NCBI GenBank assembly: GCA_963750285.1
Contig: CAVVQA010000003.1
Coordinates: 43,014-107,013 of the forward strand
Source of the DNA: an uncultured Actinomycetota bacterium
GTDB taxonomy: Bacteria; Actinomycetota; Actinomycetes; Actinomycetales; CAWJMD01
DNA length: 64,000 bases
Direction: 5' to 3'
The translations under genes and the position numbers were made by a program. The notes under the pieces were generated by a model. That model did no database searches. It worked only from the letters and a program-made list of their open reading frames with translations, and was not told where the DNA came from. How positions within the stretch are numbered: the stretch's first letter is position 1; every line of letters starts with the position of its first letter. Below, piece after piece: positions 6,543 through 39,981 of the stretch.

Positions 6543-6634
6543 CGCTGCTCCGCCCGGGGGACGCAGGGGCGACGTGACCGAGTCTTGACCCGCGGTGACG
6601 CTGTCCTTGACGTCCGCTCACGTACCGTGACCGG

Positions 6635-8450
6635 GTGAGCGAGACCGTCCAGACCGGCCGCAGGCTCGGCCGGTACCGCCTTGCCCAGGTGATCGGGCAG
6701 GGCGGCATGGGTGTGGTCCACCTCGCCCTCGACGCGCAGGGGCGGGCCGTGGCGGTCAAGGTCCTGCGCCCGCACGTGGCCGGCGACCCCGACGCGCGGG
6801 AGCGGCTCGCCCGCGAGGTCGACACCCTCACCCGGGTCCGCAGCCCCCGGGTGGCCGAGGTGCTGGACGCCGACGTCGACTGCGACACCCCGTACGTCGT
6901 GACGCGGTACGTGCCCGCCCCGCCGCTGGACCACCTGGTCACCGAGCGCGGGCCCCTGGCGGGCGAGGCGCTGGCGCGGCTGGGGCTCGGGCTCGGGGAG
7001 GCGCTCGCGGCCATCCACGCCGTCGACGTCGTGCACCGCGACCTCAAGCCCGGCAACGTCCTCATGCTCGAGGGCGACCCGGTGGTGATCGACTTCGGCA
7101 TCGCGCACGTCGCCGACGACATCCGGCTCACCAGCACCGGTCTGGTGATGGGCACGCCCGGCTACCTCTCGCCCGAGCTCATCGAGGGCGCGGCCGTCCG
7201 CGAGGCTGCCGACTGGTGGGGCTGGGCCGCGACGATGACCTACGCCGCCACCGGCCGGCCGCCGTTCGGGCGCGGCCCGCTCGAAGTCGTCCTCGACCGC
7301 GTGCGCCGCGGCGCCCCCGACCTGGACGGCGTCCCGGACGTGCTCGTGCCCGTGCTGGCCGCGGCGCTGTCGCCGGTCCCGTCCGAGCGGCCCAAGCCCG
7401 GCGCCCTGCGCCGCGCGTCCGAGCGGCTGCGCGCCGACGCCCGCGCGCACCCGGCACCGGCGCCGCGCGACCTGCGGACCCAGGTGCTGCCGGTCGTCGA
7501 CGTGCGCACGCCGCCGACGGTGCGGGCCGCCGTCCCGGTGCCGCCGCCGCCCGCCCCGCCCGAGGGCGCCACCGAGGTGGTGCCGTTCGTGCCGCCGACC
7601 AGGGCCGTCCCGCAGCCCGGCCCGACCCAGGTGCCTCCGGCCGCGGCGGCCGCCCCGGCTGCCCCTGTCGCCGCCGCCCCGGTCGCTGCGCCGCCGGCCG
7701 ACGTGCGGGTCGGCGCCGCACGCCCCCGTCCAGCAGCCGTTCCAGCAGCGCCACCAGCCGTACCAGCAGCCGGTTCCGCACCCGTTCCCGCCGGTGCCCG
7801 TGCAGGCCCGGTCGCCGCACGACCCGTTCGCGGGTCTCCTGCCGTTCGACGCCGAGGCCGCACCCGCGCCGGCGAGCCGGTCGAACCGCACCGGCACCGC
7901 CCTCACCGGGTTGCTGCTGCTGGTGTGCGTGGCCGCGGCGGCGCCCGTGGTCGCGGTGGCGCTCGGGGTCGTGTGGCTCGTGCTGGCGCGCACCGTCGAC
8001 GCCGCCAGCGGCTCGTTGCTGCGACGGCGCTACGAGCGCGGCGCACGTCGCGGCGACCGGGCCCTCATGGTGCTGTCCTCGCCGTGGCACCTGCTGGTGC
8101 AGGTGCTGCTCGCGATCCCGGTGCTGCTGCTGCCCGCGCTGGTGGGAGCGAGCGCGGCCTTCATCCCGGGACTGTTCGTGGCGGTGTCGGACTGGCCGTG
8201 GGGGACGGCGGCCACGCTCGCCGTCGCGGCCTTCGCCGGCTGCCTCACCGCGTGGTGGGGGCTGGGTGGCGGCGCGCTGCGTCGCGGGTCGCGGCAGCTG
8301 GCGCGCGGGCTCGCTCCCGGGCGCACCGGAGCCACCGTGGCCGTGGTGGTGCTGCTCGCCGTCGCGACCACCGTGGTGGTGCTGCTCGGTGCGGCCGGGT
8401 GGACCCCGCAGTGGGTGCCGCTGCCGGAGCAGCCGACGTTCGTGCCCTGA
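6635..8450 (+). CDS. Hanks-type Ser/Thr protein kinase with Pro-rich linker and C-terminal TM helices; apparent frameshift near 7690-7730
   Basis: 'IGQGGMGVV', 'VAVK', 'HRDLKPGN', 'DFG', 'GTPGYLSPE'; TM region is in ORF 7794..8450. Confidence 0.88.
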
Positions 8451-8487
8451 TGCGGCCCGCGAGGGCCCGTGACGACGGGTCCGGACC

Positions 8488-8520
8488 GTCCAGGAACCTC
8501 TCAGGAACCGTCCGTACAGT
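8488..8520 (+). promoter_or_regulatory. OmpR-family tandem box (MprA-like) and -10 element of a leaderless promoter
   Basis: GTCCAG-N5-TCTCAG (CAGGAACC repeated at 11-bp spacing) followed by TACAGT 7 nt before GTG 8528. Confidence 0.5.
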
Positions 8521-8527
8521 GATCGGC

Positions 8528-9143
8528 GTGCACGCCGCCGCCCCACGTCCGGTCCTGCTCGCGCGGGCTCTGGCAGCGGTCGCCCTGCTGCTCGGCGCGG
8601 TTGCGCTGCTGGCCGGACCGGCCAGCGCCCACGTCTCCCTGACCGGGACGGTGCCGGCCGCCGACGAGCAGGTGGCCACAGCGCCCACCGAGGTGCAGCT
8701 GACCTACTCCGACGCCCTGCTCGAGGTGGGCAACGCGGTGTCGGTCACCGGGCCGTCCGGCGCGCTGACGCTCGAGCCCCTCCAGGTCGCCGACCGCACG
8801 CTGGTGCAGCCGCTGCCGGCCGACCTGCCGCCGGGCGTCTACACGGTCAGCTGGCGGGCGGCGTCCGGCGACGGCCACCCGATCGAGGGGACCTTCTCCT
8901 TCACGTCCACCGCGACGGTGCCCACGAGCACGACGACCGAGCCCGAGCACGACCAGCAGCACGTCGTCGACGACGACCAGCGCCACGTCCGAGGAACCGT
9001 CCACCGCCGCGAGCGCCGCGGACCCGACCGGCGCAGCGAGCCTGCCGGTCTGGGTGGGCGTCCCGGTCGCCCTCCTCGGCGCCGCGGGGGTCGCGGCGGT
9101 CGTGCTGCGCCGTCGTGGTGGCGGGCCGGGGGCGCACGAGTGA
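8528..9143 (+). CDS. CopC-family copper-binding protein with C-terminal membrane anchor; apparent frameshift near 8945
   Basis: Signal peptide ending ASA-H (N-terminal His of mature CopC); 'YTVSWRAASGDGHPIEGTFSF'; Ser/Thr linker and TM helix in the shifted frame, stop overlapping the next GTG. Confidence 0.82.
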
Positions 9144-9670
9144 GCCGCTGGGCCGCCGTCCAGCCGTGGGTCTCGACCCTCCTGCGGCTGGTGCTCGCCG
9201 GCGTCTTCGCCGTCGCGGGCGCGCTCAAGCTGCCCGACCCGGACGAGAGCGTGCGCGCCGTCCGGGCCTACCGGCTGCTGCCCGAGGCCGTGGTGCCGTT
9301 CGTGGGGTACGGGCTGCCGGTGTTCGAGGTGCTGCTCGCGCTCGCGCTGCTGGTGGGCGTCGTGACCCGCGCCTCCGCCGTCGTGTCGGCCGTCCTGCTG
9401 GTGGCGTTCGTGGTCGGCGTCGCCTCGGCGGCCGCCCGCGGGCTGTCCATCGACTGCGGTTGCTTCGGCGGTGGCGGCGAGGTGGCGGAGGGGCAGACGA
9501 AGTACACCGAGGAGATCGTCCGCGACCTCGTCCTGCTGGTCGGCGCCCTGGTGCTGGCCCGCTGGCCGCGGTCGCGGTGGTCGGTCGACGCGTGGCTGCG
9601 CGGGCCGCAGCGCGTGGCCGCCGGCACCGAGGACGAGTCCGTGAGATCCGTGGGAGAGGCAGTGAAGTGA
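9140..9670 (+). CDS. MauE/DoxX-family redox-associated membrane protein
   Basis: 'RLVLAGVFAVAGALK', 'GLSIDCGCFG', four hydrophobic segments. Confidence 0.85.
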   Translation: MSRWAAVQPWVSTLLRLVLAGVFAVAGALKLPDPDESVRAVRAYRLLPEAVVPFVGYGLPVFEVLLALALLVGVVTRASAVVSAVLLVAFVVGVASAAARGLSIDCGCFGGGGEVAEGQTKYTEEIVRDLVLLVGALVLARWPRSRWSVDAWLRGPQRVAAGTEDESVRSVGEAVK

Positions 9671-13739: not shown

Positions 13740-13823
13740 GACGAGGCGTTGCGGCGGCGGGCCCGCCGTGATCGGCTGCACCCAGGCCTCCCCCGAGGCA
13801 CCTGACCCACCGAGGAGCACCGC

Positions 13824-15293
13824 GTGAGCGAGCCGACCCGCACCACCACCGCACCGGCCGAGGCACCCGACGGCGGGTACGACGTCGTCGTCATCGGCGG
13901 CGGCGCCGTGGGGGAGAACGTGGCGGGCCGGGTGGCCGCCGGCGGGCTCCGGACCGTGCTGGTGGAGCGGGAGCTCGTGGGCGGCGAGTGCTCCTACTGG
14001 GCCTGCATGCCGAGCAAGGCGCTGCTGCGTCCGACCCAGGGGATCGCGGAGGCGCAGCGGGTGGCCGGCGCCTCGCAGGCCGTCACCGGGACCGTCGACG
14101 TCGCCGCCGTGCTCGCCCGCCGCGACAAGGTGACCCACGGCTGGGACGACTCCAGCCAGGTCGACTGGGTGCGCTCGGCCGGCATCGACCTCGTGCGCGG
14201 CCGCGCCCGGGTGACCGGCGAGCGCGCCGTCGAGGTCACCTCGGACGACGGCACCGTGACGCTGCGGGCCGAGGTCGCGGTCGTGGTCTGCACCGGCTCC
14301 GAGCCCTCGGCGCCCGACCTGCCGGGCCTCGCCGACGTCGCGACCTGGTCGAGCCGCGACGCCACATCGGCGCAGGCGGTGCCGGAGTCGCTCTGCGTCC
14401 TCGGCGGCGGGGTGGTCGGTGTCGAGATGGCGCAGGCGTACTCGCGTCTCGGCAGCCGGGTCACGCTGGTCAGCCGCGGGCGGCTGCTCGCCCACGCCGA
14501 GCCCCGCGCCGCCGAGCTGGTCGCCACCGCGCTGCAGCAGGACGGCGTGGCGCTGCACCAGCACACCGAGGTGGCCTCCGTGGCAGCGGACGGCGACGAC
14601 GGCGCCGCGGTGGTCGAGCTCGCCGACGGCACCACCGTGCGCGCCGACCGCCTGCTCGTGGCGACCGGACGGCGGCCCGCCACCGGCGGCCTCGGCCTGG
14701 AGCAGTGGGGCTTCGGGGCGGGCCAGCCCGTGCGGGTCGACGACACCGGGCCTGGCGGAGGGCACCACGTGGCTCTACGCCGCTGGCGACGTCACCGGCC
14801 GGGCGCCGCTGACCCACCAGGGCAAGTACGCCGCGCGCGCCGTCGGCGCCGCCGTGCTGGCCCGCGCACCGCGGCGACCTCGGTGCGGACGAGGTGCCGG
14901 AGCGCTGGTCGCCCGAGGTCGCCTCCGCGGACGTCGGGGCGGTCCCGCAGGTGGTGTTCACCGACCCGCAGGTCGCCTGGGTCGGGCCAGGGCTCGAGCA
15001 GGCGCGGCAGGGCTACCCGGACCTGCGGGTGGTGGAGTACGACATCGCGAACGTGGCCGGGGCCTCGGTGCACGACGACGAGCTACACCGGCTGGGCGCA
15101 GATGCTGGTCGACGAGAGCCGGCAGGTGGTCGTCGGCGTCACGTTCGTCGGTCCCGACGTCGCCGAGCTGCTGCACTCCGCGACGGTCGCGGTCGTGGGC
15201 GAGGTGCCGCTGCACCGGCTCTGGCACGCCGTGCCGAGCTACCCGACGACGAGCGAGGTGTGGCTGCGCCTGCTCGAGACCTACGGCCTGTGA
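13824..15293 (+). CDS. Pyridine nucleotide-disulfide oxidoreductase (dihydrolipoamide dehydrogenase family); three apparent frameshifts near 14750, 14875 and 15080
   Basis: 'IGGG', '[13 protein letters not shown]', 'GGGVVGVE', 'ATGRRP', 'YAAGDV', 'HAVPSYPT' distributed over three frames. Confidence 0.85.
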
Positions 15294-16575: not shown

Positions 16576-17573
16576 GGGCGGTCCCCTCCCGCGCGCAGGA
16601 TGGCGAGCAACCGCTCCTCCAGGCTGACGTGACCCGGCTCGACGGAGTGCACCCGCACGCCGAGCCCGACCAGGTCGGCCACCAGCTCGGGCACGACGTC
16701 GCCGGTGACGAGACCGCCTGCGTCCGCGTCCTCCTCGAGGTCGGCCGGCAGGACCAGCGTCCAGACCTCGCCCTGGTGCGACACCTCGCCGTCCCGCTCC
16801 AGCCGTGCGCGCGCCGCCGCCCCGACGCCGTCGAGGCGCAGCTGCACCTCGCGCCGCCCGAGCAGCTCGGCGAGCGACCCGGACGCGGCCACCCGCCCGC
16901 GGTCGAGGATCACCACCCGGTCGCAGACCCGCTCGACCTCGCCGATGAGGTGCGAGTTGAGCAGCACGGCGACGCCACGGGCCTTGAGCGAGAGCACGAT
17001 GTCGCGCACGTCGGCCCGTCCGAGCGGGTCGAGCGCACTGGTGGGCTCGTCGAGCACGACGAGGTCGGGCCGGGCCACCAGCGCCACCGCCAGGCCGAGC
17101 CGCTGCTGCATGCCCTTGGAGAAGCCGCCCACGCGGTCGCCCGCGCGGTCGGCCAGACCCACGAGCGCGAGCGCGTCCTGCCGCTCGTCGGGCGGGACGT
17201 CGGCACCCGCGAGGCGCACGTGCAGGGTCAGCACCTCGGTCGGCGTGAGCCAGGGCTGGTAGCGGAACAGCTCCGGGAGGTAGCCCACCCGCTCGCGCGA
17301 GCGCGGGTCGGTCGACGGGCGGCCGAGCAGCAGCACCTCGCCCGCGTCCGGGCGCACGAGGCCGAGCAGCATCTTGATCACGCTCGTCTTGCCGGCGCCG
17401 TTGGGCCCGAGCAGGCCCACCACCTCGCCGCGTCGCACCGTCAGCGAGACGTCCTCGACCGCGGTCTGCCGGCCGTACCGCTTGCGCAGCCCCGAGCACC
17501 ACGCCGCGGCCGGCTCCGGCAGGTCGGCGAGGAGCTGGCGGGCGTCCTCGACCGATCCGGGCGCTCCGCTCAT
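16572..17573 (-). CDS. ABC exporter ATP-binding protein
   Basis: Walker A GPNGAGKT, signature FSKGMQQR, Walker B VVLDEPT. Confidence 0.92.
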   Translation of the reverse strand: MSGAPGSVEDARQLLADLPEPAAAWCSGLRKRYGRQTAVEDVSLTVRRGEVVGLLGPNGAGKTSVIKMLLGLVRPDAGEVLLLGRPSTDPRSRERVGYLPELFRYQPWLTPTEVLTLHVRLAGADVPPDERQDALALVGLADRAGDRVGGFSKGMQQRLGLAVALVARPDLVVLDEPTSALDPLGRADVRDIVLSLKARGVAVLLNSHLIGEVERVCDRVVILDRGRVAASGSLAELLGRREVQLRLDGVGAAARARLERDGEVSHQGEVWTLVLPADLEEDADAGGLVTGDVVPELVADLVGLGVRVHSVEPGHVSLEERLLAILRAGGDRP

Positions 17574-18668
17574 CGCAGCCCGCGGGCGACCGTCAGCACC
17601 TCGTCGGCGGAGAGCGACCCGGCCACCGCGGTGACCTCGCCGTCGCGGACCCAGACCACGCCGGCCATCGTCCCGTCGCGGGAGGTGATGACGGTGCCCT
17701 GCACGCCGTCGACGTCGGCCGTGGTGGTGCTCACCTGGCCGGCCGGCACGGGCAGCGGCAGCGTGCTGCCGTCGGAGGAGAAGTCGCGCAGCTGGTCGGC
17801 GAGGTCGGCGGGGATGCCGGGCACCGACAGCAGGTAGTCGCGGGCGGCGTCGAACGACAGACCGGACGAGAACGCCGTGGGGGCGACGGCGCGGGCGACC
17901 ACCAGGGCGGGCACGTCCTGCGAGCCCTGCCAGACCGTCGCCACACCGGGACCGGCGGTCAGCCGGAAGGTGTTGCCGTCCAGGCCGTCCGGCGGCGCGG
18001 GGAGCGTCTGCCCCGTCGCCGCGGCCGCCTGCGCGGCCTGCTCGGCGGAGAAGGTGAACTCGACGGTGGCGCGCCCGCCGACGGCGTACGACGGCTCGCC
18101 GGTGACGCCCCGGGGCAGGGCGGTGACCTCGGGCACGTCGAGGCCGGAGGCCTCGGCCGCCTCCGCGGCGTCGGCGACCTGGCGCACGTCGGGCTGCTCG
18201 GTGACCTCGACGTCGCCGTAGGCAGACAGGTCGGGCAGCTCGACGAGGTCGACGTCGGTGATCGACACCGCCGCGACCTGCTCGGTGGAGAACACCTGGA
18301 ACCAGTCGTTGGCCGCCGCGGTGCCCGCGCCGGCGAGCAGGGCGGCCGCGCCGACGACCGCCACGGCGGGGCTGCGCAGCACGGCGCGCCAGCGCCGCGG
18401 TCGCGTCGACGGCGGTGGGACGGCGGCGCCGCCCCGGTCGGTGCGGGCGAGCGTCGCGGACAGCCGTCGCCACGCGGTCTCCACGTCGGCGTCGCCGGCG
18501 CCAGGGCGCACCCCCGAGCGCGGCGTGCACGTGCTCGGCGTCGGCGCGGACGGCAGCGAGCGTCGTCAGGCAGTCGGGGCAGCCGGCGACGTGCCGGCGG
18601 TCGGCGTCGGCGACGCCCACGGGCTCGTCGACCAGGCGGCGCAGGGTGCCGTCAGTGGGATGACGCAT
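17570..18668 (-). CDS. Putative zinc-binding (ZAS-like) membrane anti-sigma factor; apparent frameshift near 18510
   Basis: N-terminal HxxxCxxC 'HVAGCPDC', one TM, extracytoplasmic domain; overlaps the ECF sigma stop. Confidence 0.72.
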
Positions 18669-19167
18669 GGCGGTCCATCTCCTCGCGTAGGGCGTTCTCG
18701 GCGCGTCGCACGGTCGTACCGACGCTCCCGGGGGACAGGTCGAGCGCGGCGGCGACCTCGGCGTAGCTGAGGCCGCTGTGCCGCAGGACGAGCGCGACGG
18801 CCTGGCGGTGGGGCAGCCGCGCCAGCGCGGCGCGCACGCGGCGCCGCTCGTCGAGGGCGAGGACGGTGTCGGCCACGTCGGGCACGACCCGCTCGGTGTG
18901 GACGGCCTCCTCGCGCGAGCTCCGTCGGCGTCCGGTGCGCAGGTGGTTGAGCGCGGTGTGGGCGGCGGCCACGGCGAGCCAGCCGCGGGCCTCCGCCGCC
19001 GGGACGGTGGTGCGTCCGAAGGCCACGAAGACCTCCTGCGCGACGTCCTCCGCCTCGTCCTGCGAGCCGAGGACCCGGGCCGCCACCGCGACGACCCGCG
19101 GGTAGGTGGCGCGGAACACCTGCTCGAGGTCGGCGCGCACCGCGTCGTGCCCCCTGGCAGCGCCCAC
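18652..19167 (-). CDS. ECF RNA polymerase sigma factor
   Basis: 'AEDVAQEVF', 'WL', region 4 'GLSYAEVAAALDLSPGSVGTTVRRA'. Confidence 0.88.
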   Translation of the reverse strand: MGAARGHDAVRADLEQVFRATYPRVVAVAARVLGSQDEAEDVAQEVFVAFGRTTVPAAEARGWLAVAAAHTALNHLRTGRRRSSREEAVHTERVVPDVADTVLALDERRRVRAALARLPHRQAVALVLRHSGLSYAEVAAALDLSPGSVGTTVRRAENALREEMDRHASSH

Positions 19168-19464
19168 GTGCGTCCCGTCCCTCCGCTCGACCCGCCCGGC
19201 GCCGCGCCGGGCCGCGGTCGGCGGGACGGGCAGCGCGACGACCGGTGCGTCCGCTCCTCGCCCGATGACGTCCACACCATCAGAGCACCGCTGACGCCCC
19301 GGATGTGACATCCGGGGTGAGGGTGCTGCGGGGGAATGGTGGAGGACGCCCACCGCGACGACGTCGGCCGCCCACGCACCCGGTGGCGGGAGTACCGTGG
19401 GCTGCTGGTCGCTCGGGGAGTGGGTCGTCCGACCTGCCACACGCGAGTCGAGCCTGTCCGGAGG

Positions 19465-20415
19465 ATGCCGGTGCGCACGAGCCGTCCCGCCGCAGGCGGC
19501 TACCGCCACGAGGCCCTGGTCTACCGCGGCGTCGACGAGTTCGTGGGCCGCGCCGCCGACTTCGTGCGCGACGGCCTCGCCGGCGGCGAGCCGGTCATGG
19601 TGGCCGTGGCGGCACCCCGGCTGGAGCTGCTGCGCGACGCGCTCGGCCGAGATGCCGACCGGGTGGATCTGGCCGACATGGCTGAGCTGGGGGCCAACCC
19701 GGCGCGGATCATCCCCGCGTGGCAGGACTTCGTGTCCGCTCACGCCGGGTCCGGACGGCGGGTGCGGGGCATCGGCGAGCCGATCTGGGCCGGCCGTGGC
19801 GCGGAGGAGATCGAGGAGTCGCAGCTCCACGAGGCGCTGCTCAACCTGGCGATCGACCCCGACACCCCGCTGTGGCTGCTGTGCCCCTACGACGCCGACG
19901 CACTCCCGGCGGAGGTGCTGGAGGAGGCGTCCTGCAGCCATCCCGCCGTCGTGCAGGACGGCGACCTGCGTGGCAGCAGGAGCTATGGCGGGGTCCATCA
20001 CGCGACGGCCATCTTCTCGGCGCCGCTGCCCGACCCCCCGCCCGGAGCCGTCGAGGTGGCCTTCGGGCGGGACGACCTCGCCCGCGTCCGGCGCACCGTG
20101 GTCGACCTCGCGGCCGCTGCGGGTCTGGACGAGGAGCGCGCCGCCGACCTCGCTCTGGTGGCGACCGAGCTCGCGACGAACAGCGTCCGGCACGGAGGCG
20201 GAGGCGGTGTGCTGCGGTGGTGGGAGCAGCCCGGGTCGCTCGTCGTCGAGGTGCGCGACGCGGGCCGGATCCACGACCTGCTCGTCGGGCGCCGCCGTCC
20301 GGAGCCGGGCGCGCCGGGCGGCCGAGGGGTCTGGCTCGCCCACCAGCTCACCGACCTGGTCCGGATCCGGTCGACGGACGACGGGGTCGTCGTCCGGGTG
20401 CTCGCGCACCGCTGA
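19465..20415 (+). CDS. MEDS sensor domain fused to RsbW-type HATPase (anti-sigma kinase)
   Basis: 'YRHEALVY', 'NPARIIPAW', 'LLCPYD'; C-terminal 'ELATNSVRHG', 'DAG', 'GRGVWL'. Confidence 0.8.
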   Translation: MPVRTSRPAAGGYRHEALVYRGVDEFVGRAADFVRDGLAGGEPVMVAVAAPRLELLRDALGRDADRVDLADMAELGANPARIIPAWQDFVSAHAGSGRRVRGIGEPIWAGRGAEEIEESQLHEALLNLAIDPDTPLWLLCPYDADALPAEVLEEASCSHPAVVQDGDLRGSRSYGGVHHATAIFSAPLPDPPPGAVEVAFGRDDLARVRRTVVDLAAAAGLDEERAADLALVATELATNSVRHGGGGGVLRWWEQPGSLVVEVRDAGRIHDLLVGRRRPEPGAPGGRGVWLAHQLTDLVRIRSTDDGVVVRVLAHR

Positions 20416-20432
20416 CCGCCGAGGCGGGCCGG

Positions 20433-23400
20433 TCAGCCGGTCGTCGACCAGACCAGCCGGGACGCGTGGGCGCCGTCCAGGGCGACCCAGACGTCGTTGT
20501 GCTCGAACGCCAGCCGGACCCTCAGCACCCGCCCGGCGGGGATGGTCTGGTTGACGGTGCCGACCTGCAGCGTGCGGTCCTCCCAACCGAGCCCGGGGCT
20601 CCAGCGGTCGACGTGCACGTCGTCGGCGGTGGCCAGCCGGACGCACGACGTTCCGGCCGCGTTGCAGCTGTACAGCCAGATCGAGTAGTCCACGTGCTCA
20701 CCGCCGAGGTCGAACTTCGCCGTCCGGCTCGACAGCTCCAGCCGCACCGGTCCGTCGAGCGCCAGTCCTCCGGCGGGCACCGTGTAGTCCCAGTCGTGGA
20801 ACCGCTCGACCTGGTCCTCGTCCTCGTCCATGCTGCTCTTCTCGATGGTCAGCCCCGGTGCCCCGTCGCCGTCCCAGTCCCCGGCCGCACCGGGCGCAGT
20901 CGGTGAGAGCGCCCCGGGCGTCCCCTTCCGGCTGCCGATCAGGAACAGCGCCTGCTGTGTCGGCGGCGCGGCGGTCACCGTGATGACGACGGTGCCGGTG
21001 CTCGGACGCGGCGCCGTCCGAGACGGTGTAGGTGAAGGTCCGCACCCCGGGGCTCGGAGGCGTCCAGGTGAAGGTGCCGTCGCTCGCCACCGTCACCTCG
21101 GGCGAGTCGTCGGCCGTGACCGTGAGGACGTCGCCGTCCTCGTCGCCGTCGTTGGCCAGCAGGTCGCCGGTGAGCGGTTGGCCCGCCACCACGGTGAAGC
21201 CGTCGTCGGCGGCGGTCGGGGCGTCGTTGACGGGGGTGACGGTGATGGTGACGGTCGCGGTGGAGGTGTCGCCGTCGGGGTCGGTGACGGTGTAGCCGAC
21301 GGTGTCGGTGCCGTTCAGGTCCGAGGCGGGGGTGTAGGTCAGGGTGCCGCCGGTGAGGGTGGCGGTGCCGCCGGTGGGTGCGGTGGTGATGGTGGTGGTG
21401 AGGGTGTCGCCGTCGGGGTCGGTGTCGTTGGTGAGCACGTCGACGTCGACGGGGGTGTCCTCGGTGGTGGTGGCGGTGTCGTCGGCGGCGGTCGGGGCGT
21501 CGTTGACGGGGGTGACGGTGAGGGTGGCGGTGGCGGTGGAGGTGTCGCCGTCGGGGTCGGTGACGGTGTAGCCGACGGTGTCGGTGCCGTTCCAGTCCGG
21601 GTCGGGGGTGTAGGTCAGGGTGCCGCCGGCCATGGTGGCGGTGCCGTGGGCCGGTGCGGTGGTGATGGTCGCGGTGAGGGTGTCGCCGTCGGGGTCGGTG
21701 TCGTTGGCCAGGACCGCGAGGTCGAGAGCTGTGTCCTCGGGCGTGGCGGCGGCGTCGTCACCGGCGACCGGGGCGTCGTTGACCGGCGTGACGGTGAGGG
21801 TGGCGGTGGCGGTGGAGGTGTCGCCGTCGGGGTCGGTGACGGTGTAGCCGACGGTGTCGGTGCCGTTCCAGTCCGGGTCGGGGGTGTAGGTCAGGGTGCC
21901 GCCGGCCATGGTGGCGGTGCCGTGGGCCGGTGCGGTGGTGATGGTCGTGGTGAGGGTGTCGCCGTCGGGGTCGGTGTCGTTGGTGAGCACGTCGACGTCG
22001 GCGCCGGTGTCCTCGGTGGTGGTGGCGGTGTCGTCGGCAGCGGTGGGGGCGTCATTGACGGGGGTGACGGTGATGGTGACGGTCGCGGTGGAGGTGTCGC
22101 CGTCGGGGTCGGTGGCGGTGTAGCCGACGGTGTCGGTGCCCGACCAGTCCGGGTCCGGGACGTAGCTGAGCACCCCCGTCGCGAGCGACGCGGTCCCGTG
22201 CGCCGGCGTCCCCGCGAGCGCTGCGGTCACCTGGTCGCCGTCCTCGTCGGCGTCGTTCGCGAGCACGTCGACGTCGACGCCCGTGTCCTCCGACGTGCTG
22301 GCGGCGTCGTCACGGGCGACCGGGGCGCGGTTGGTCGGGGTCGGCTCCGGGGTCGCGGTGGCGACGGGCGTCGGCGACGGGGTGCTTCCCACGGGCACGG
22401 GCTCCGTCACCGACGGACCCGGGCGCACGGGCGCCGGGGCGGTCGTGGTCGACGGCACCGTGGTCGGTGAGGTGGTCGGTGAGGTGGTCGGTGACGTGGT
22501 CGGGGCAGGAGCCGGCGTCGGGGCGCCGGTCGGCGCGGGCGACGGGGCGTCGTCCTGCTGCACAGGCTGCTCCTCCTGGGCGGCGACCACCTCGGCCTCG
22601 TCGGCCGCCACGGGAGCCAGCCCGAGCCCGAGCAGGACCCCGGCCGCAGCGGCGGCGCCGACAGCCGCGCCGGCGACCTGGCCGAGCACCGGCGCGACGT
22701 GCGGCCCCAGGTTCGAGATCGGCTGCAGGATCGGCAGCTGGGCGAGCCAGGAGAGGGGGCCGGCGGCCCAGCGCAGTCGTCCGAGCGAGATGTTGAGGAA
22801 CGCGCGCACGATGACGGGGTCGAACTGCGTGCCGGCGCAGCGCGCGAGCTCGGCCCGCGCGGCGGTGGCAGACATCGCCCGCTTGTACGGCCGGGCCGCG
22901 GTCATCACCTCGTAGGAGTCGGCGACCGCCACGATCCGGGCGGCGAGGCTGATCTGCTGACCGGCGAGCCCGTACGGGTAGCCGCCGCCGTCGTAGCGCT
23001 CGTGGTGCTGCTCGATGGCGTGCCACCACGGGCCCAGCCACTCCTGCAGCGGCGAGCAGATGGTGGCGCCGGCGGCGGGGTGCTCGCGCAGCCGGCGCCA
23101 CTCGGCGTCGTCCGGCGCTCCCGGCTTGTTGAGCACGTCGGTGGGCACCCGCAGCTTGCCGATGTCGTGCACCAGCGCCGCCCAGACGAGCTTGTCGCGG
23201 TCGTCCGCCTTCAGCTTCATCTCGTCGGCGAGCATCGTGACGAACAGCTGGGTGCGCTCGGAGTGCCCCCGGGTGCGGCTGTCGTAGTCGCCCAGCATCC
23301 CGACCAGGGACAGGATCGTCTCGGCGGCCTGCTGTCGATCGCCGTGCACGCCGGCCCGGCGAGCGCGTTCGAGCTCGGCCGCCAGCGCCTTGGTCCCGGC

Positions 23401-23715
23401 GACCGTGCGAGCCACCTTGAAGCGCGACGGCGCCTTGTCCGGGAACAGCATCGACAGCTTGAGCAGGGTGGCCAGCGGCAGCAGGCGGCGGGTCAGCCGC
23501 TCGACCAGCAGGGCGACCACCGTCGACACCGTCAGCACGACGGTCCACTGGGTGACGACCCCGCCGAAGGTCCGCGGTGCGGGAAGTGCCCCGCTGACGG
23601 CCAGCCCGGCGGCCACGGAGGCCAGCACGGGGATCACCACGGCGGCAGCGCGGAGCAGTGCTGCGCGCACGGGGTGCGACTGCCAGCGGTCGCTGGTCTC
23701 GGGAGCAGGTGCCAC
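20433..23715 (-). CDS. Membrane HD-GYP phosphodiesterase fused to five Ig-like (Big_9/tandem-95 type) repeats and a C-terminal beta-sandwich; apparent frameshift near 21003
   Basis: Two N-terminal TM; 'HSERT', 'HDIGK', 'HHERYDGGGYPYGL', 'RIVAVADSY', 'RPYK'; third TM; Pro/Thr linker; repeats 'NDAPxAxDD...EDT...NDxDxDGD...YTP...D'; C-terminus in ORF 20433..20978. Confidence 0.85.
20975..22333 (-). repeat. Coding tandem repeats, 276-bp period (92 aa), five units
   Basis: Near-identical DNA units; the antisense ORFs at 21344, 21620 and 21896 are spaced exactly 276 bp apart. Confidence 0.9.
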
Positions 23716-23725
23716 GTCGGTGATG

Positions 23726-23790
23726 TTCGACGCGTCCGGACCCGGGCTTGAGCGCGCAGATGGTGACCTGTCCTGAGCCGTGCGAGTGAA
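23726..23790 (-). promoter_or_regulatory. Putative FliA/WhiG-like promoter plus conserved upstream box
   Basis: Minus strand: TTCAC-tcgc-ACGGCTCA (23790-23774), then CTCA-N17-GTCGAA ending 10 nt before the GTG start. Confidence 0.45.
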
Positions 23791-23916
23791 CTGTCCCCCG
23801 GCGACACCGGCCGGACGTGCGTGGGCGCGTGCCGGACCGGTCCTCGCTGCGTGACCGCCCGGCTCCGGACGCCTTGTCGCGGTGCGTCCGGACGGGCGCG
23901 GGGCTAGCGTCGGACG

Positions 23917-24381
23917 ATGCCTGACCTGCCTGCGACCACCCGCACCGTCACCCGCACGACGACCGCGACCCCCGCGCAGGTCTGGGCGGTGCTCAGCGAC
24001 GGGTGGAGCTACGCGACCTGGGTCGTCGGCGCCTCGAGGGTGCGCGAGGTCGACGCCACCTGGCCGGCGCCGGGCAGCCGGATCCACCACTCGTTCGGGC
24101 TCTGGCCGGTGCTGCTGAACGACGTCTCCACGGTGCTGGAGTCCGACACCGAGCGGCACCTGCGGCTGCAGGCCGAGGGCGACCCGATGGGCGAGGCCAC
24201 CGTCGACATCACGCTGACGCCCGAGGGCGGCGGCACGCGGGTCGAGATCCGGGAGGACGCCACCCGCGGCCCCGGCCGGCTGGTGCCGTCACCGGTGCGC
24301 CAGCTCGCGATCGTCCCGCGCAACACCGAGGCGCTGCGCCGTCTCTGCCTGGTCGCGGAGGGACGCGCGAAGGGTCACTGA
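23917..24381 (+). CDS. SRPBCC (polyketide cyclase-like) protein
   Basis: 'TPAQVWAVLSDGWSYATWVVGA...RN.EAL.RL'. Confidence 0.8.
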   Translation: MPDLPATTRTVTRTTTATPAQVWAVLSDGWSYATWVVGASRVREVDATWPAPGSRIHHSFGLWPVLLNDVSTVLESDTERHLRLQAEGDPMGEATVDITLTPEGGGTRVEIREDATRGPGRLVPSPVRQLAIVPRNTEALRRLCLVAEGRAKGH

Positions 24382-27419: not shown

Positions 27420-28264
27420 AGTGCGTCCTCGTCGATCTCGTCCGTCGGCGGTACCAGGCGGACGACGCCGTCCTCGACCACGACCGAGGCCCGGTGGGTG
27501 GGGAACAGGGCCAGCGCCTCGGGGGGCAGCTGGACCCGTCCGGTCGGGTCGATCGCCGCCAGAGCTGCACGGCCACCGCTGCTCTCGCTCGAGAGCACGC
27601 CGTGGCGCAGGTGCAGCACCCGGTCGGCGCGCGCCACGAGCCGGGCGTCGTGGGTGGCGACGACGACCAGCCCGCCGGCGGCCGCGCGGGCGGCGAGGAG
27701 GCTGCCCACCCGGGCGGCGCTGTCGTCGTCGAGCTCGGCGGTCGGCTCGTCCGCCACCACCGCCGACGGACCGCCGAGGCACGCGGCCGCCACCGCGAGC
27801 CGCTGCTGCTCGCCCCCGGACAGCAGCGACGCGCGGACGCGAGCGCGGTCGGTCAGGTCGACCGCCTCCATCACCTGCGCGACGTCCTCGGCCCCCGCGT
27901 CGCGCTGGCGGCGCACGACGTCGAGGTGCTCGGCCGCGGTGAGGTGGCCGAGGACGGCGTGCGACGGCCGCTGGGGCACCCACGCGAGGTCGCGCCGGCG
28001 CAGCCGCCGCACGGCCGCGGCGGAGGACGTCGCGAGATCCTCACCGAGCACCTCCACCTCACCTCCGCTGGGTCGTTCACGCAGCGCGAGGAGCTGCAGC
28101 AGGCTCGACTTCCCGCTGCCCGACGGCCCGGTCACGGCGGTGAAGGTGCCGCCGCGGAACTCGGCGTCGACCCCGCGCAGCGCGTGGGTCTCGCCTGTGG
28201 CCGTGGTGTAGATCCGCACCACCCCGACGCAGCGGACGAGGCGGGGCGCTCCCGTCTCAGGCAT
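27416..28264 (-). CDS. ABC transporter ATP-binding protein (LolD-like) with C-terminal AbrB-like extension
   Basis: GPSGSGKS, LSGGEQQR, ADEPT; tail 'IDPTGRVQLP...VVVEDGVVRL'. Confidence 0.85.
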   Translation of the reverse strand: MPETGAPRLVRCVGVVRIYTTATGETHALRGVDAEFRGGTFTAVTGPSGSGKSSLLQLLALRERPSGGEVEVLGEDLATSSAAAVRRLRRRDLAWVPQRPSHAVLGHLTAAEHLDVVRRQRDAGAEDVAQVMEAVDLTDRARVRASLLSGGEQQRLAVAAACLGGPSAVVADEPTAELDDDSAARVGSLLAARAAAGGLVVVATHDARLVARADRVLHLRHGVLSSESSGGRAALAAIDPTGRVQLPPEALALFPTHRASVVVEDGVVRLVPPTDEIDEDAL

Positions 28265-31080
28265 CGCGGACCACCTCCGCGTCCGAGGGTCGGCGCCCGC
28301 GCGCGGCGGCCGCGGCGGCGGCGACCGTCGTCGCCACGACCGTGCCCAGCACGAGCACCGCGACGTCGGTCAGGTCGACCACGAGGCGCAGGTCGGGCAG
28401 CCCGCCGTCGCCGGGGTCGAGCAGCCGGTCGGCGAGCGGGGTGAGGACGAGGACGGTCAGGGCCGCGAGAAGCGCTGCCGCCGAACCGATCACGAGCACC
28501 TCCAAGGTGCGGGCGCGACGGATGCCCCGCGCACCGATCCCGGCCCGGGCGAGCAGGACGTCGGCGGCGCGGTGCTCGGCGGCGGTGCGGTCGGCGTGGA
28601 AGGCGAGCGCTCCCGCTGCCATCAGCGCCAGGATCACGCCCACCGCCACCTGGTACGAGCCGCCGAGGGTGGTTGCCACGACCTCCGGGACCGACCGCGC
28701 GGACTCGGCGGTGGTCACCTTCCGGGGCTCGATCCCGCCGGCCTCCAGCACCCCGTCGAGCTCCGCCTCGCCGCCGGCGACCCACAGCTCGGCGCGGAAC
28801 TGGTCGACGCGGGCCGTCCGGGCGTCGGGTCTCGGGTGCAGGCGGGGGTCGAGGTTCGTGTGGGCGAGGAGGAACGGGTCGGCCGGGACGACGATCATCG
28901 GCCGGTTGCTGCGACGTCCGGGTGCGACCTCCACGACGTCGAGGATCTCGACGTCCATCGTGACGAAGTCGCTGCTGACGCTCGCCGCGCGGCCCGGCTC
29001 GAGCCCCACGTCGCCGACCACCACCACCGGCAGCCGCGAGACGATCCCGCCGGCGCGCAGGGTCTCACCGGCTGCCTTCTCCCCGGCCGCCAGCTCGGGC
29101 AGGCGCTCGCGCAACCCGTCCAGGGCACCGCTGCTGCCCCAGCTCGCCGCCGCCGCGAAGCTGTCGGCGTCGACGAGCAGCACGTCGACGCCACCCGTGC
29201 GTCCGGGGATGTCGGTCTGCGCGCGCCAGACCACGGTCTGCCCGCGCGGGAGCTCCGGCGTGCGGGCGTGCACGGGCATGTCAGCGGGGCCGGCGATCTG
29301 CGCAGCCTCCTCGTTCGAGAGCTGCTCGGGCGCGCCCGGGTCGAGCTCCCAGGCGCCGCGCAGCTCGGCGACGGCAGTCGCACCCGATGCGACGGCCACG
29401 CGGTCCTCGATGGTCGCCCCCACCGAGCCGACCGACACCAGGGCCCAGAACAGCACGGCCAGGCCGGTGGTGACGACGGTGAGGACGACGCCACGCTCGT
29501 CACCGGTGGAACCGGCACGGCGCACGGCGAGGGAGACGGCGGCACGACGGGCAGCGAGCCGGCGGGTCCCGGGCGACAGGGCGGAGCGCCGCGCGGCCCG
29601 GCGCGCCAGCAGCACGAGCAGGGCCGACCCGGGGGCGCCGGCGGCGGCTGCGACGACGAGCGGCACCAGCAGGTCGAGCGGACCGAGGCCGAGCCCGCGC
29701 TCGGGGCGCCCCGCTACCCCGGCCACGCCGGCGGTCGCCAGCACCACCAGGCCCAGCCGCCACGGCACCCGGCGCAGGGGTGCGCCCGCCCGCTGCGGGC
29801 GGGCGGCCAGCGCGGCGGCCGCCGCGGTCGTCAGGACGACGAGCCCGAGGGCCACCAGCAGCGCCGTCCCGGCTGCGACCAGCGCGTCGTCGCGCCCGCT
29901 CGCGGTGATCCGGCCGGCCGGTCCCCAGACGACGACCACGCCGTACGCGACCGCGGTGCCGAGGGGCAGCGCCAGCAGCGCCGGCGGGACCAGCTCCGCG
30001 GCGGCGAGCGCCGCGGTGCGACGCGCCGGGACGCCCAGCGCCGCGAGGGCATGGAGCTCGCCGGCGCGCAGCCGCAGGGTCAGGACGCACGCCACCAGGA
30101 CCGCTGCCAGGCCGACCAGGACCCCGCCCTGGCCGACGGTCCGCGTGCCCTCCTCGGTGGCGGCGGCGAGCTCGTCCGCCTCGCCGACGATGCGCTCGAC
30201 CCCGCTGGTGACGCCGAGCCGCAGCGGACCGTCGTCGACGTCGACCCGGTCGGGGTTGACGGCGTCGCGGCGCAGCTCCTCGATATCGACCACGGTCGCG
30301 CGGGCCTCCGCCAGCGTGGGGTGGGTGGGATCGAGCCGGACCTCGGCGGTCCAGAACAGCTCGTCACCGACTCCGGGCGAGGACGGCGGCCGTCTCCGGG
30401 TCGGTGACGGCGAGGTACGCACCGATGGTGGTGCCGTCGGTGTCTCCGGGAGCCCGCCACGACGCGAGGCAGAGCCGAGACCCCTGGATCGCCGTCGCTG
30501 TGCCGTCAGGCCCGACCGCGTAGGTGCCGGCGACCCGCGTGGGCACCGGCGGCCGCCCGTCCGTCGTCTCGACCGCCAGGTCGACGGGGTCGCCCGGCAC
30601 CACCCCGAGGTCGTCCGCGACCGGACGGGCAGCCAGACCCCGGTGGAGTCGACGTCGGCCTCGACAGCTCGAGGCGGCGGCGGGGTCGTCGACGCCTGCC
30701 GGCGCGCCCGGGCGGACCGGGCGCCGTGGACCACGACCGGGCGGCGGACCGAGCGCGGGATCAGCTCCTGGCCCACCGAGAAGGCCAGCGCGCGGGGGTC
30801 CGTGCCGCTGACCCGGTCGAGCTGGCGCAGCAGCACGCGCTGGCGCGGCTGGCTCGGGGCGGTGCCGCCGTTCAGCCGCACCACGGGGGAGTCCGCGGCG
30901 CGCGCGGTGGGCGGCACGGCGTCGATCGTGTGGCGAGGGCGGCGTTGGCGGCCGCCTCCGTGAACAGCGGCGCCGCGGCCGCGACGGCGAGCAGCACAGC
31001 ACGACCGTGAGGAGCGGACCTGACGCGCCGCCCGCCCACGACCGACGCAGGGCCCGCGCCCACGCGGGCCTGGTGCGCAT
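28257..31080 (-). CDS. Large FtsX-like ABC permease; multiple apparent frameshifts at 30350-31000
   Basis: Two clusters of TM helices with 'R..EL..L.ALG' and 'LLARAGIG.RGIRR...LE' FtsX-like motifs; start is approximate. Confidence 0.65.
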
Positions 31081-31196
31081 CCTGCACGGCCGGGGCGCCC
31101 CCGGTCGAGCACCGTGCGCCGGCGTCCGCGCCGTGGTCGATGGTGGCCGCCGTGGCGGGCGCAGTGGGGGAGACTCCCCGGCGTGGAGGGGCCGCC

Positions 31197-33435
31197 GTGA
31201 CCGAGCAGGTCGATGCCGCCTTCGTGGCCGGCGTGGGGGCGATGGCCGAGGACGGCGTGGCACCGGCGAGCCTGGGCGAGCACCTCACCGCGCAGCGGGC
31301 GGTCGACCTGTTCGAGGCGCAGGTCACCAGCCGCCACCTCGACCTCGCCGCCCGCTGGCTGCGCTCGCAGGGCAAGGGCTTCTACACGATCGGGTCGTCC
31401 GGCCACGAGGGCAACGCGGCCGTCGCGGCGGCGCTGCGTCCGACCGATCCGGCGCTGCTGCACTACCGCTCGGGCGGCTTCTACCTCGCGCGGGCGCAGC
31501 AGGTGCCGGGCGCCGACGCCGTCCGCGACGTGCTGCTCGGCCTGGTCGCCGCCGCCGACGAGCCGATCGCCGGCGGGCGGCACAAGGTGTTCGGGCAGCC
31601 ACGACCTCGCGGTGATCCCGCAGACCTCGACGATCGCCTCGCACCTGCCGCGCGCGCTCGGCGTCGCGTTCGCGATCGACCGCGCCGCCAAGCTCGGCGT
31701 GGCGAGCGCCTGGCCCGCGCGACGCGGTCGTGGTCTGCAGCTTCGGCGACGCCTCGGCGAACCACTCGACCGCGGCGGGCGCGATCAACGCCGCGGTGCA
31801 GGTCGTCGAGCCGGGGCATCCCGGTGCCGCTGCTGCTGGTGTGCGAGGACAACGGGCTCGGGATCAGCGTGCCGACGCCGCCGGGCTGGGTCGCAGCAGG
31901 CCTACGGCCACCGGCCCGGCCTGCGCTACCTCGCCGCCGACGGCACCGACCTGCGTCGCCGTGCGTCGAGGCGGCCACGCGAGCTGGCCGACTGGGTGCG
32001 CGCCGCACCGCCGGCCGGCGTTCCTGCACCTGCGCACGGTGCGGCTGATGGGCCACGCCGGCACCGACCTCGAGAGCGCCTACCGCCGTCCCGCCGAGAT
32101 CGCGGCCGACCTCGCGCGCGACCCGCTGCTGGCCACCGCGCGGCTGCTCGTCGGCAGCGGGACGCTCACCGCCGACGGAGGTGCTGGCGCGCTACGACGC
32201 GACGTCGGCGCGCGGGTGCGCGACGGTCGCGCGAGGAGGTCGCCGACGTGCCGCGGCTGACGTCGCGCCGAGGCGGTGATGGCGCCGCTCGCGCCGCGCC
32301 GCCCGGACGAGGTCGCGCGTGCGGCCGCCGTCGCCGCGTCGCCCGACCGGCGGCGCGCGGTCTTCGGCGGCGACGCTGCCCGAGGACGACGGCCCGCTGA
32401 CGCTCGCGCAGCAGATCAACCGGGCGCTGCTCGACCTGCTCGCGCGGCGACCCGGGCGCGCTGGTGTTCGGCGAGGACGTCGCCGCGCAAGGGCGGCGTC
32501 TACGGCGTGACCCGCGGCCTGCAGCGCACGGTCGGCGCCGGCCCGGGTGTTCGACACGCTGCTCGACGAGCAGACGATCCTCGGGCTCGGCGCTCGGCGC
32601 GGGCGCTGTCCGGGCTGCTGCCGATCCCGGAGATCCAGTACCTGGCCTACCTGCACAACGCCGAGGACCAGCTGCGCGGCGAGGCGGCGACGCTGCCGTT
32701 CTTCTCCGGCGGCCGGTACCGCAACCCGATGGTCGTGCGGGTCGCCGGCTACGGCTACCAGAAGGGCTTCGGCGGTCACTTCCACAACGACAACGCCGTC
32801 GCCGTGCTGCGCGACGTCCCCGGCCTGGTGGTCGCCTCGCCGTCGCGCCCGGACGACGCGGCCGCGATGCTGCGCACCTGCGTCGCGCGGCCGGACGCGT
32901 CGACGGCACGGTCTGCGTGTTCCTCGAGCCGATCGCGCTGTACCACTCGCGCGACCTGCACGAGGACGGCGACGGGCTCTGGACGGCGCCGTACGCCGGC
33001 CCGGACGGGTGGGCGGCGGGGCACGTGCCGATCGGCTCGGCGCGCACGCACGGCGACGGTGCCGACCTCACCGTCGTCACCTTCGCCAACGGCGTGCCGA
33101 TGAGCCTGCGTGTGGCAGAGCGGTTGCGGCAGCAGGGGGATCGGCGTCCGCGTCGTCGACCTGCGCTGGCTCGCGCCGCTGCCGGTCGACGACGTCCTGC
33201 GCGAGGCGCGCGCCACCGGCGCGGTCCTCGTGGTCGACGAGACCCGGCGCACCGGCGGGGTGTCGGAGGGGGTCGTCACCGCGCTGGTCGACGCCGGGTT
33301 CGCCGGCCGGTCGCGCGCGTGACCAGCCAGGACAGCTTCGTGCCGCTCGGTGACGCGGCGCTGACCGTGCTGCTGTCGGAGGACGACATCGAGCGCGCGG
33401 CGATCTCACTGGTGAGGGGATCGGGGCCGACGTAG
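31197..33435 (+). CDS. 2-oxoacid dehydrogenase E1 alpha/beta fusion (TPP-dependent); many apparent frameshifts
   Basis: Fragments over several frames: 'FYTIGSSGHEG', 'SFGDAS.NH', 'EDN', 'VFGEDV', 'FDTLLDEQ', 'EIQY', 'GGHFH', 'VDLRWLAPL'. Confidence 0.82.
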
Positions 33436-39819: not shown

Positions 39820-39981
39820 GGCCACTGCCTTCCCTCGCGCTGCCGGTGACCCCGTCGTGGGGCCGTGCTGCAGGTTGGAGTGTGCTCGTGGCCTCGATGT
39901 TCCAGCCAGGGATCGGCCGACCGGGTGACGCGTGCGTCCGTCGATCGCGGCCGCGTGTCCGGTCCACCGGCACACCTGGCA

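Follow-up and report, generated by a model that had tools for sequence, protein, structure and literature searches.

A predicted transmembrane HD-GYP protein with an Ig-like repeat stalk and a jelly-roll tip in an uncultured actinobacterium and its relatives

The structurally characterised HD-GYP phosphodiesterases PmGH (4MCW), PA4781 (4R8Z) and DvhD (9RBZ) are, as also judged from entry names and chain lengths, soluble proteins or isolated domains in which any sensor is N-terminal. Display of a large repeat adhesin at the bacterial surface is controlled by cyclic di-GMP (c-di-GMP) in the LapD/LapG/LapA system, and the receptor kinase PknB lacks an N-terminal membrane hairpin. According to the main text of a survey of HD-GYP domains (Galperin and Chou, bioRxiv 10.1101/2021.11.05.467447), these domains are typically C-terminal to sensor domains, and none of the HD-GYP proteins with an extracytoplasmic sensor (dCache, CHASE2, PBPb) had been experimentally characterised. 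In the available part of a Streptomyces c-di-GMP census (PMC6205966), the HD-GYP proteins are of the 6TM-HD-GYP type, where TM stands for transmembrane. Here we describe a gene on the minus strand of a 64,000-nucleotide stretch of DNA from an uncultured Actinomycetota bacterium (hereafter the window; positions 43,014 to 107,013 of contig CAVVQA010000003.1, assembly GCA_963750285.1), whose product combines an HD-GYP domain with Ig-like Big_9 repeats and a C-terminal tip domain, predicted to lie on opposite sides of the membrane.

The window protein shares its catalytic domain with PmGH, PA4781 and DvhD, including the HD, HHExxDGxGYP and RxxK motifs. Unlike these proteins, it is predicted to be membrane-embedded, with two helices before the domain and one after it, followed by ~720 extracellular residues. 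The one-component proteins with dCache, CHASE2 or PBPb domains, as the survey's main text presents them, likewise pair a domain outside the cell with a cytoplasmic HD-GYP domain; their sensors, however, are N-terminal and lie between two helices, whereas the arrangement in the window protein is inverted and ends in an adhesin-type stalk and tip. The terms “Ig-like”, “Big”, “Actinobacter” and “Actinomyc” do not occur in that main text, and its Table 3 or supplements may list the architecture. The Streptomyces 6TM-HD-GYP layout, to the extent that the census describes it, also differs from that of the window protein. PknB-type kinases with PASTA domains have the topology that is predicted for the window protein, with the catalytic domain inside, one helix, and C-terminal repeats outside, but their output is a kinase and that of the window protein a predicted phosphodiesterase. 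LapD/LapG/LapA comprises three proteins, with a degenerate EAL receptor and inside-out proteolysis, whereas the system in the window is one polypeptide with intact catalytic motifs and no conserved partner gene. Full-text literature searching found no study of this HD-GYP/Big_9 family and, as an initial annotation of the sequence had surmised, no characterised protein with this architecture.

The gene is laid out as follows, with residues numbered along the product (aa, amino acids).

20433..23715, minus strand: whole gene, ~1,093 aa when a single extra base near 21003 is ignored
21004-23715, minus strand: frame A, 904 aa from the probable GTG start at 23715
20433-21002, minus strand: frame B, 189 aa and stop codon
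23587..23673, minus strand: TM1, residues ~15-43, from hydropathy and an AlphaFold2 helix at 15-43 (predicted local distance difference test score, pLDDT, 87-95)
23491..23568, minus strand: TM2, residues ~50-75, from hydropathy and an AlphaFold2 helix; predicted to form a hairpin with TM1 through a short outside loop
23410..23490, minus strand: family-specific, predicted cytoplasmic motif after TM2, RRLLPLATLLKLSMLFPDKAPSRFKVA, residues 76-102, from conservation in 54 sequences
22813..23298, minus strand: HD-GYP catalytic domain (HD_5), residues 140-301, Pfam E 2e-33
22741..22800, minus strand: conserved segment ahead of TM3, FLNISLGRLRWAAGPLSW, residues 306-325, from alignment conservation
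22600..22698, minus strand: TM3, residues ~340-372, from hydropathy; its C-terminal end reads LAPVAA and is followed by DEAE
22333..22599, minus strand: Pro/Thr-rich linker, residues 373-461, from composition
21004..22332, minus strand: five repeats of the Big_9 / tandem-95 type, with one ND.D.DGD loop apiece, from Pfam, NCBIfam and the DNA repeat
21003 (approximate, within 21000-21006), minus strand: extra frame-shifting base, from homology to relatives
20433..21002, minus strand: C-terminal tip, comprising the last strand of repeat 5, a jelly roll and the stop codon, from AlphaFold2 and fold matches

Every part listed in the initial annotation (two TM segments, the HD-GYP motifs, a further TM segment, a Pro/Thr linker, five repeats and a Cys pair) was found on the minus strand. 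The Pfam and NCBIfam E-values are so low that the domain assignments lie beyond chance, and we are highly confident that this is a single gene with its parts in the order read, from the HD-GYP half through to the tip. As open frames on the minus strand, a long one at 20698-24159 is overlapped by a second at 20433-20978, in a window with a G+C content of ~75%. The GTG at 23715 is the probable start as judged from the N-termini of homologs; no clear ribosome-binding site was found ahead of it.

The catalytic half is well defined. Pfam matched HD_5 to residues 140-301 with 115.9 bits against a cut-off of 27.2, and HD with 71.7 bits against a cut-off of 22 (E 8e-20). The motifs HDIGK, HHERYDGGGYP and RPYK are all intact, and in an alignment of 54 sequences H151, H183, D184, K187, H212, H237, E239, D242, G243, G245, Y246, P247 and D266 were invariant, with R275 and K278 conserved in at least 90% of the relatives. 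From the alignment to PmGH and general knowledge of these enzymes, we take H151, H183, D184, H212, H237, E239 and D266 to be the metal ligands. Across the window protein and 120 family members, HHExxDGxGYP occurs in 119 of the 121 sequences, and RxYK in all 108 family members that have a hydrophobic segment after the motif. The AlphaFold2 model of the N-terminal part (mean pLDDT 78.9) exceeds 90 over the HD-GYP part, and its fold matches were PA4781, DvhD bound to c-di-GMP, and PmGH, with TM-scores against the target of 0.73-0.80 for PA4781 and DvhD. An intact HD-GYP domain, as initially annotated, is thus supported by profile matches above cut-off, the presence of the motifs and the invariance of the catalytic residues. 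Several related types were also considered. Pfam found no Response_reg match that would place the protein among RpfG-type REC-HD-GYP proteins, a NosR-family model matched the HD-GYP part only (112 bits against a cut-off of 400), and a PgpH-type 7TM-HD protein was excluded by the three hydrophobic segments and the presence of the GYP motif, the PgpH fold match being weak (E 1e-2).

The substrate can be anticipated from the motifs. In searches with the first 400 residues, the best sequence match in the PDB was V-cGAP3 of Vibrio cholerae (5Z7C, E 1e-31), which is specific for cyclic GMP-AMP (cGAMP), followed by PmGH (E 9e-27) and PA4781 (E 5e-26). V-cGAP3 reads RPYR at the RxxK position, whereas the window protein reads RPYK, as PmGH does, which would favour c-di-GMP. 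The main text of the HD-GYP survey associates Lys at this position with c-di-GMP and Gln or Asn with cGAMP (bioRxiv 10.1101/2021.11.05.467447); by this rule the family, with its RPYK, is expected to act on c-di-GMP. The window also encodes two GGDEF-domain proteins whose GGDEF motifs are intact (39930-41222, plus strand; 53839-54978, minus strand), so the organism probably makes this nucleotide. The HD-GYP domain, predicted to be cytoplasmic, probably hydrolyses c-di-GMP.

Conservation extends beyond the Pfam domain. Two stretches outside it are conserved to the same degree as the active site: LPLAxLxKLSxxFPDxAPSR after TM2, in which R76, L79, P80, L84, F91, P92, D93, P96, S97 and R98 are invariant in the 54 sequences, and FLNxSxGxxRxxxGPLxW before TM3, in which F306, L307, G312, R315, G319, P320, L321 and W323 are at least 90% conserved. 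Both flanking motifs may form a relay that links the membrane and the enzyme.

Hydropathy revealed three hydrophobic segments (~15-46, 49-75 and 340-372), and two such segments before the HD-GYP motif with one at most 200 residues after it was the commonest pattern in the family, found in 68 of the 121 sequences. Seven Lys/Arg residues lie within residues 72-100, after TM2, and an acidic stretch comes just after TM3, where the first charged residue is acidic in 85 of 107 relatives. A single hydrophobic segment separates the HD-GYP domain from the repeats, and after residue 293 the protein contains no Cys other than C113 and C120, both in the frame-B piece. The single intervening helix, the charge bias and the conserved Cys pair of the tip fit the topology that had been proposed, with HD-GYP predicted inside and the repeats outside. 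The linker contains 24 Pro, 20 Thr, 12 Ala and 8 Ser among its 89 residues, and presumably spans the cell wall.

Pfam found five Big_9 matches in the stalk (357.5 bits, E 7e-109), overlapping with Cadherin_4 and Cadherin_5 matches, and the NCBIfam tandem-95 model (tand_rpt_95) matched five stretches with 293.3 bits against a cut-off of 90 (E 3e-89). The ND.D.DGD loops recur with a period of 92 residues (487, 579, 671, 763 and 855), mirrored in the DNA by a 276-bp repeat of 4.0 copies with 85% matches. From the motif, we presume that these loops bind Ca.

The tip was modelled with high confidence as an all-beta sandwich (59 aligned sequences; pLDDT 95.8; predicted template-modelling score 0.89). 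It carries a DWDGDG loop and the Cys113/Cys120 pair, which brackets the short loop of a hairpin formed by strands 104-113 and 121-131 in the model and would fit a disulfide outside the cell. G50 is invariant in the family, and D42, W71, G84, C113, C120, W134, W140, G148 and W172 are at least 90% conserved. A search of the full library with the 189 residues matched 256 representative clusters (50% identity) at E <=1e-3, 116 of them at E <=1e-10. The initial annotation had likened this domain to PepX_C, which proved apt for the fold and not for family membership. Among solved structures, Foldseek matched the C-terminal jelly rolls of cocaine esterase, other CocE/NonD proteins, alpha-amino-acid ester hydrolase and PepX (E 4e-7 to 4e-5, TM-score on query up to 0.67), the best being the PepX_C jelly roll of cocaine esterase (1JU3; E 4e-7, TM-score 0.64-0.67). 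Identity to that jelly roll is ~10%, and it forms part of an enzyme, whereas the tip would be a terminal surface module. Pfam gave no match to the window's tip (frame B) at E up to 0.1; a distant relative, P0226, matched PepX_C over the tip region with 24.3 bits against a cut-off of 22.5. By fold, far weaker matches were seen to TNF-like domains and Bdellovibrio Bd1399/Bd2734. The predicted viral structures most like the tip were modules of predicted phage tail-fibre-like proteins (TM-scores 0.62-0.70, root-mean-square deviation 2.8-3.7 Å), some from proteins that also bear an intramolecular-chaperone or S74 domain, or collagen repeats. Searching PDB sequences with the tip profile gave nothing over the tip, only two weak matches in flanking repeat columns, and the ESM Atlas returned only unnamed clusters, all below 0.9. 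We conclude that the tip represents a predicted extracellular domain family that has neither annotation nor a Pfam model and is worth a Pfam entry.

The initial annotation had regarded HD-GYP domains and Big_9 repeats as normally separate proteins. This view was not supported: their fusion forms a large family to which annotation pipelines already give names. Searching with frame A, we found 1895 proteins at E <=1e-3 among 8000 candidates scored, and PF13487 (HD_5) and PF17963 (Big_9) occur together in all of the best 120 of these 1895 matches. A hidden Markov model of the tip matched 101 of the 120 clusters, usually ending at most four residues from the C-terminus, with ~200 further residues after the tip in about 25 of the tip-bearing members. 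Since HD-GYP and tip share one polypeptide in these 101 clusters, and five of five relatives carry the tip in frame, the locus holds one gene rather than two, as had been proposed. Database names for members are “Ig-like domain-containing protein”, “tandem-95 repeat protein”, “HD-GYP domain-containing protein” and “putative nucleotidyltransferase with HDIG domain”. A sample of genomes, from which at least 76 loci were kept (from 605 stretches) and which did not contain the relatives at 70-93% identity, yielded at least 60 loci matching the N-terminal module: by their labels, 56 in Actinomycetota, three in metagenome-assembled genomes (MAGs) of Dormibacteraeota and one in a MAG named “Acidobacteria bacterium” (L013, L016, L057 and L055 being the non-actinobacterial loci). 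Among further listed loci, 14 from other phyla match HD-GYP only and two match the repeat region only. Named isolates among them include Actinospongicola halichondriae, Kineococcus vitellinus and a strain deposited as Streptomyces sp. NP160, and an intact homolog also occurs in Phycicoccus duodecadis. Of the relatives that have a name, the nearest is Angustibacter peucedani, whose partial protein shares 73% identity across the N-terminal module. The HD-GYP/Big_9/tip fusion is therefore not unique, yet it is unstudied, and it is mainly actinobacterial.

What follows the conserved core varies within the family. Pfam identified HD_5 in 43 of 44 full open reading frames (ORFs) from genome loci, followed by Big_9 in seven, Big_13/Ig_J in two, PA14 in two, PKD in one, pentapeptide repeats in two and nothing recognised in 29; one of the seven Big_9 ORFs also has PKD, LTD and NHL. 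The number of Big_9 copies ranges from 0 to 12 per relative, HD-GYP and tip occur without a Big_9 match in P0223 and P0240, and one relative bears an LTD domain in place of the tip. Apart from the forms of ~470-495 aa described below, many short matches are incomplete or lie on short contigs. A quick-search tree of the core module (52 rows, 274 columns) groups the window protein with P0004, L001, P0008 and P0014 at 100% support; on it the ectodomain label requires 15 changes, compared with a minimum of 6 and a shuffled mean of 24.9; these counts are rough, as the “nothing recognised” class is heterogeneous and frame breaks have shortened some MAG ORFs. Big_9 alone requires five changes on the tree, three of them forced by well-supported branches. 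Such repeated swapping of ectodomains on a conserved core fits the pattern of a receptor phosphodiesterase or sensor. Two members, P0012 (1088 aa) and P0100 (687 aa), for both of which the longest contig is given as 3,142,963 bases, are probably paralogs in one genome that differ in ectodomain length.

The tip, in turn, has other partners. We scanned 108 tip-bearing proteins (40 + 68) with Pfam, in most of which Big_9 repeats precede the tip. Judged by a motif test, HD-GYP proteins make up 35 of the best 150 tip clusters (of 256). P0207 is a PknB-like Ser/Thr kinase (NCBIfam, residues 1-330) with a hydrophobic helix at 307-334 and the tip at 399-556, in place of PASTA domains. Four clusters (P0203, P0217, P0247 and P0249) fuse the tip to a SipW-type signal peptidase I (NCBIfam). 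It is also found in four DUF6701 (MshQ-like) proteins, in three of which it is N-terminal, in secreted tandem-95 proteins, and in one protein with a weak PilV-type pilin match.

Our best explanation of these combined findings, which we consider about as probable as not, is that the gene encodes a transmembrane HD-GYP phosphodiesterase receptor of ~1,093 residues, belonging to a mainly actinobacterial family. From a cytoplasmic N-terminus, the chain would run through the TM1-TM2 hairpin, the HD-GYP domain, TM3, the linker and five Big_9 repeats with Ca loops to the PepX_C-like tip. The HD-GYP domain would break down c-di-GMP in the cytoplasm, and the linker would take repeats and tip through the cell wall. 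There the tip may bind an external ligand, with a glycan or surface polymer as the likeliest candidate, or the stalk may be placed under tension, and a signal passing via TM3 and the conserved membrane-proximal motifs would alter phosphodiesterase activity. Such control of the enzyme from outside to inside is plausible, at a likelihood that we place just short of even. More tentatively, and with appreciably less conviction, we suggest a Gram-positive contact or matrix receptor, with a wall-spanning stalk and a jelly-roll sensor, in which a surface glycan, the cell's own exopolymer or a pull may switch c-di-GMP hydrolysis through one helix.

Several points weigh against this receptor. TM3 is modelled weakly (AlphaFold2 helix 341-363, pLDDT ~56), and its end, with Pro..Ala-x-Ala before an acidic residue, resembles a signal-peptidase site; cleavage after TM3 would separate the enzyme from its ectodomain. 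Contigs of 0.4-2 Mb also encode forms of ~470-495 aa in which nothing but a Pro-rich tail follows the core, so the core needs no folded ectodomain. None of the 108 scanned tip-bearing proteins contains a GGDEF, EAL or histidine kinase domain, and beyond HD-GYP the one kinase cluster is the sole signalling output found with the tip. The frame break at 21003 does not lie in a homopolymer, so a real mutation in the strain is possible. The inside/outside topology is a prediction from a crude hydropathy test, the charge bias and the conserved Cys pair, and enzyme activity, substrate, ligand and coupling are all things that we infer.

One alternative is that the protein is an anchored adhesin with an uncoupled enzyme, in which the N-terminal module serves mainly as an anchor and HD-GYP activity is constitutive or local. 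The single helix that joins the two sides, the presence in the family of Big_9, CshA_repeat, PA14, PKD and LTD, all typical of adhesins and surface proteins, the occurrence of the tip in the secreted tandem-95, MshQ-like and weakly pilin-matching proteins, and its resemblance to predicted tail-fibre-like modules would all suit such a role. However, the motifs flanking HD-GYP are invariant or nearly so whatever the ectodomain, which is more constraint than an anchor needs, and exchange of ectodomains on a conserved catalytic core is a pattern of sensor proteins. Moreover, the C-terminal translation shows neither a sortase motif nor any other signal for anchoring to the wall. We regard an uncoupled adhesin as unlikely.

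Another alternative is that the extra base is real and has made the gene a pseudogene in this strain, so that the product runs out of frame after the fifth repeat and loses the tip. Homology to relatives departs from frame A at “...DGAAS” and re-enters frame B at “STGTV...”, and the joined length of both frames equals that of P0005, indicating one extra base at ~21003. The shift stands in the given sequence, outside a homopolymer, and frame A stays open for ~100 more codons, to 20698, as a pseudogene would allow. Against this, third-position G+C in the coding phase is 0.85-0.97 both before and after the shift, so the shifted frame keeps its coding periodicity. The tip piece retains every residue conserved in the family and is 60-61% identical to its nearest aligned homologs. 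P0004, P0005, P0008, P0011 and P0014 (1011-1236 aa) have their parts in the same order as the window protein and read uninterrupted from the last repeat into a domain like that of frame B. At least three further genes in the 64 kb (LacI-family, oxidoreductase with at least two breaks, anti-sigma) are also broken. Finally, P0265 (93% identical over the first 400 residues) loses its frame in the linker and P0003 (86% identical) after the third repeat and again later, both at sites other than that in the window gene, for which random indel error is a better explanation than shared decay. Because homologs read through, periodicity holds, other genes are broken and close relatives break elsewhere, the break near 21003 is likely an assembly error, the pseudogene is improbable to much the same degree as the uncoupled adhesin, and the protein is probably whole in the cell. 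The 1-nt shift pointed out in the initial annotation thus exists in the given sequence, yet as a real feature of the gene it is most likely an assembly artefact. Programmed frameshifting was rejected, as no slippery sequence is visible at 21000-21006 and the homologs use one frame.

The protein might instead be a processed precursor, in which TM3 acts as an internal signal peptide that is cut after LAPVAA, freeing linker, repeats and tip as a secreted or wall-associated product and leaving a three-helix HD-GYP protein behind. The window protein and P0003, P0004, P0005, P0008, P0011, P0014 and P0016 have a Pro at -5 and Ala-x-Ala immediately ahead of Asp/Glu, a crude test for small residues at -3/-1 is passed by 41 of 107 members, and the SipW-type signal peptidases fused to the tip domain in four clusters would be in keeping with processing. 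The remaining 66 of the 107 members fail the test, however, and Ala is so abundant in these high-GC proteins that the motif may have arisen by chance. Internal signal sequences are also seldom cleaved in bacteria, where such cleavage is unusual, and we consider processing quite improbable. Least probable, and in our view very unlikely, is inside-out control following the logic of LapD, in which occupancy or turnover of c-di-GMP at the HD-GYP domain would reshape or cluster the ectodomain and so tune adhesion: c-di-GMP-controlled adhesin display is known from LapD/LapG/LapA, and the physical link from a nucleotide domain to an adhesin-like part is conserved, but the catalytic residues show full conservation where those of a receptor would be degenerate, Pfam detects neither HAMP nor a protease partner nor any further relay domain, and there is no conserved neighbouring gene.

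In the window, the gene of the proposed receptor stands alone, between a convergent MEDS/HATPase_c_2 gene (19336-20415, plus strand), which is not a conserved neighbour elsewhere, and a divergent SRPBCC-type (Polyketide_cyc2) gene. No conserved operon partner was found in the family; apart from the gene's own antisense ORFs, the best cluster consisted of ABC-transporter-like (ATP-binding cassette) ORFs, at 12 of 61 loci. The promoter and terminator scan of 20200-24100 returned 0 sites of either kind. Between 19000 and 25500 no credible riboswitch or other RNA element was detected, the best matches being a microRNA model (E 0.12) and Guanidine-II (E 0.44), both under their gathering scores.

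Other genes of the window showed features of their own. The LacI-family regulator (2524-3574, plus strand) is split near 3100-3130: one frame encodes the helix-turn-helix (HTH) together with the first half of the sugar-binding domain, and a second frame encodes the remainder. The pyridine-nucleotide-disulfide oxidoreductase (13806-15290, plus strand) loses and regains its frame, with breaks near 14.8-14.94 kb and 15.08 kb, and positions 1-46 of its dimerisation domain sit in another frame. The putative anti-sigma gene (17570-18667, minus strand), downstream of an extracytoplasmic function (ECF) sigma gene (18652-19248), changes frame near 18520 at a run of five G; one frame encodes the Cys-bearing N-terminal portion and the other the membrane and extracellular portion. 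At 31700-33400, short ORFs whose coding phase is unstable carry fragments of Transket_pyr and Transketolase_C (transketolase/E1-like), which reflect either a decayed gene or further indel errors. The open frame at 6611-9667 (plus strand) has a match to a Ser/Thr kinase domain that stops at position 198 of 263 and is followed by CopC and MauE/DoxX domains; it may represent several genes or another frame problem. Two long coding-like ORFs have no Pfam match, one of 1144 aa (28257-31691, minus strand) that adjoins two ABC ATPase genes, and one of ~700 aa (37253-39358, minus strand). An adjacent pair of paralogs, each with DUF5937 and an ArsR-type HTH, is located at 43948-46052 (minus strand).

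At the level of the window, the lesson is that the gene is probably intact and that the assembly carries indel errors. The link from cell-surface events to c-di-GMP is poorly known in Gram-positive bacteria, and this family offers a compact, one-protein test case, with no conserved partner gene, a natural series of stalks of 0 to 12 repeats, and exchangeable ectodomains. If the tentative proposal of a contact or matrix receptor is true, the family would be a bacterial counterpart of adhesion receptors and would provide the first known case of an HD-GYP enzyme under control from the cell exterior, and the tip would be a shared extracellular input module that also feeds a PknB-like kinase.

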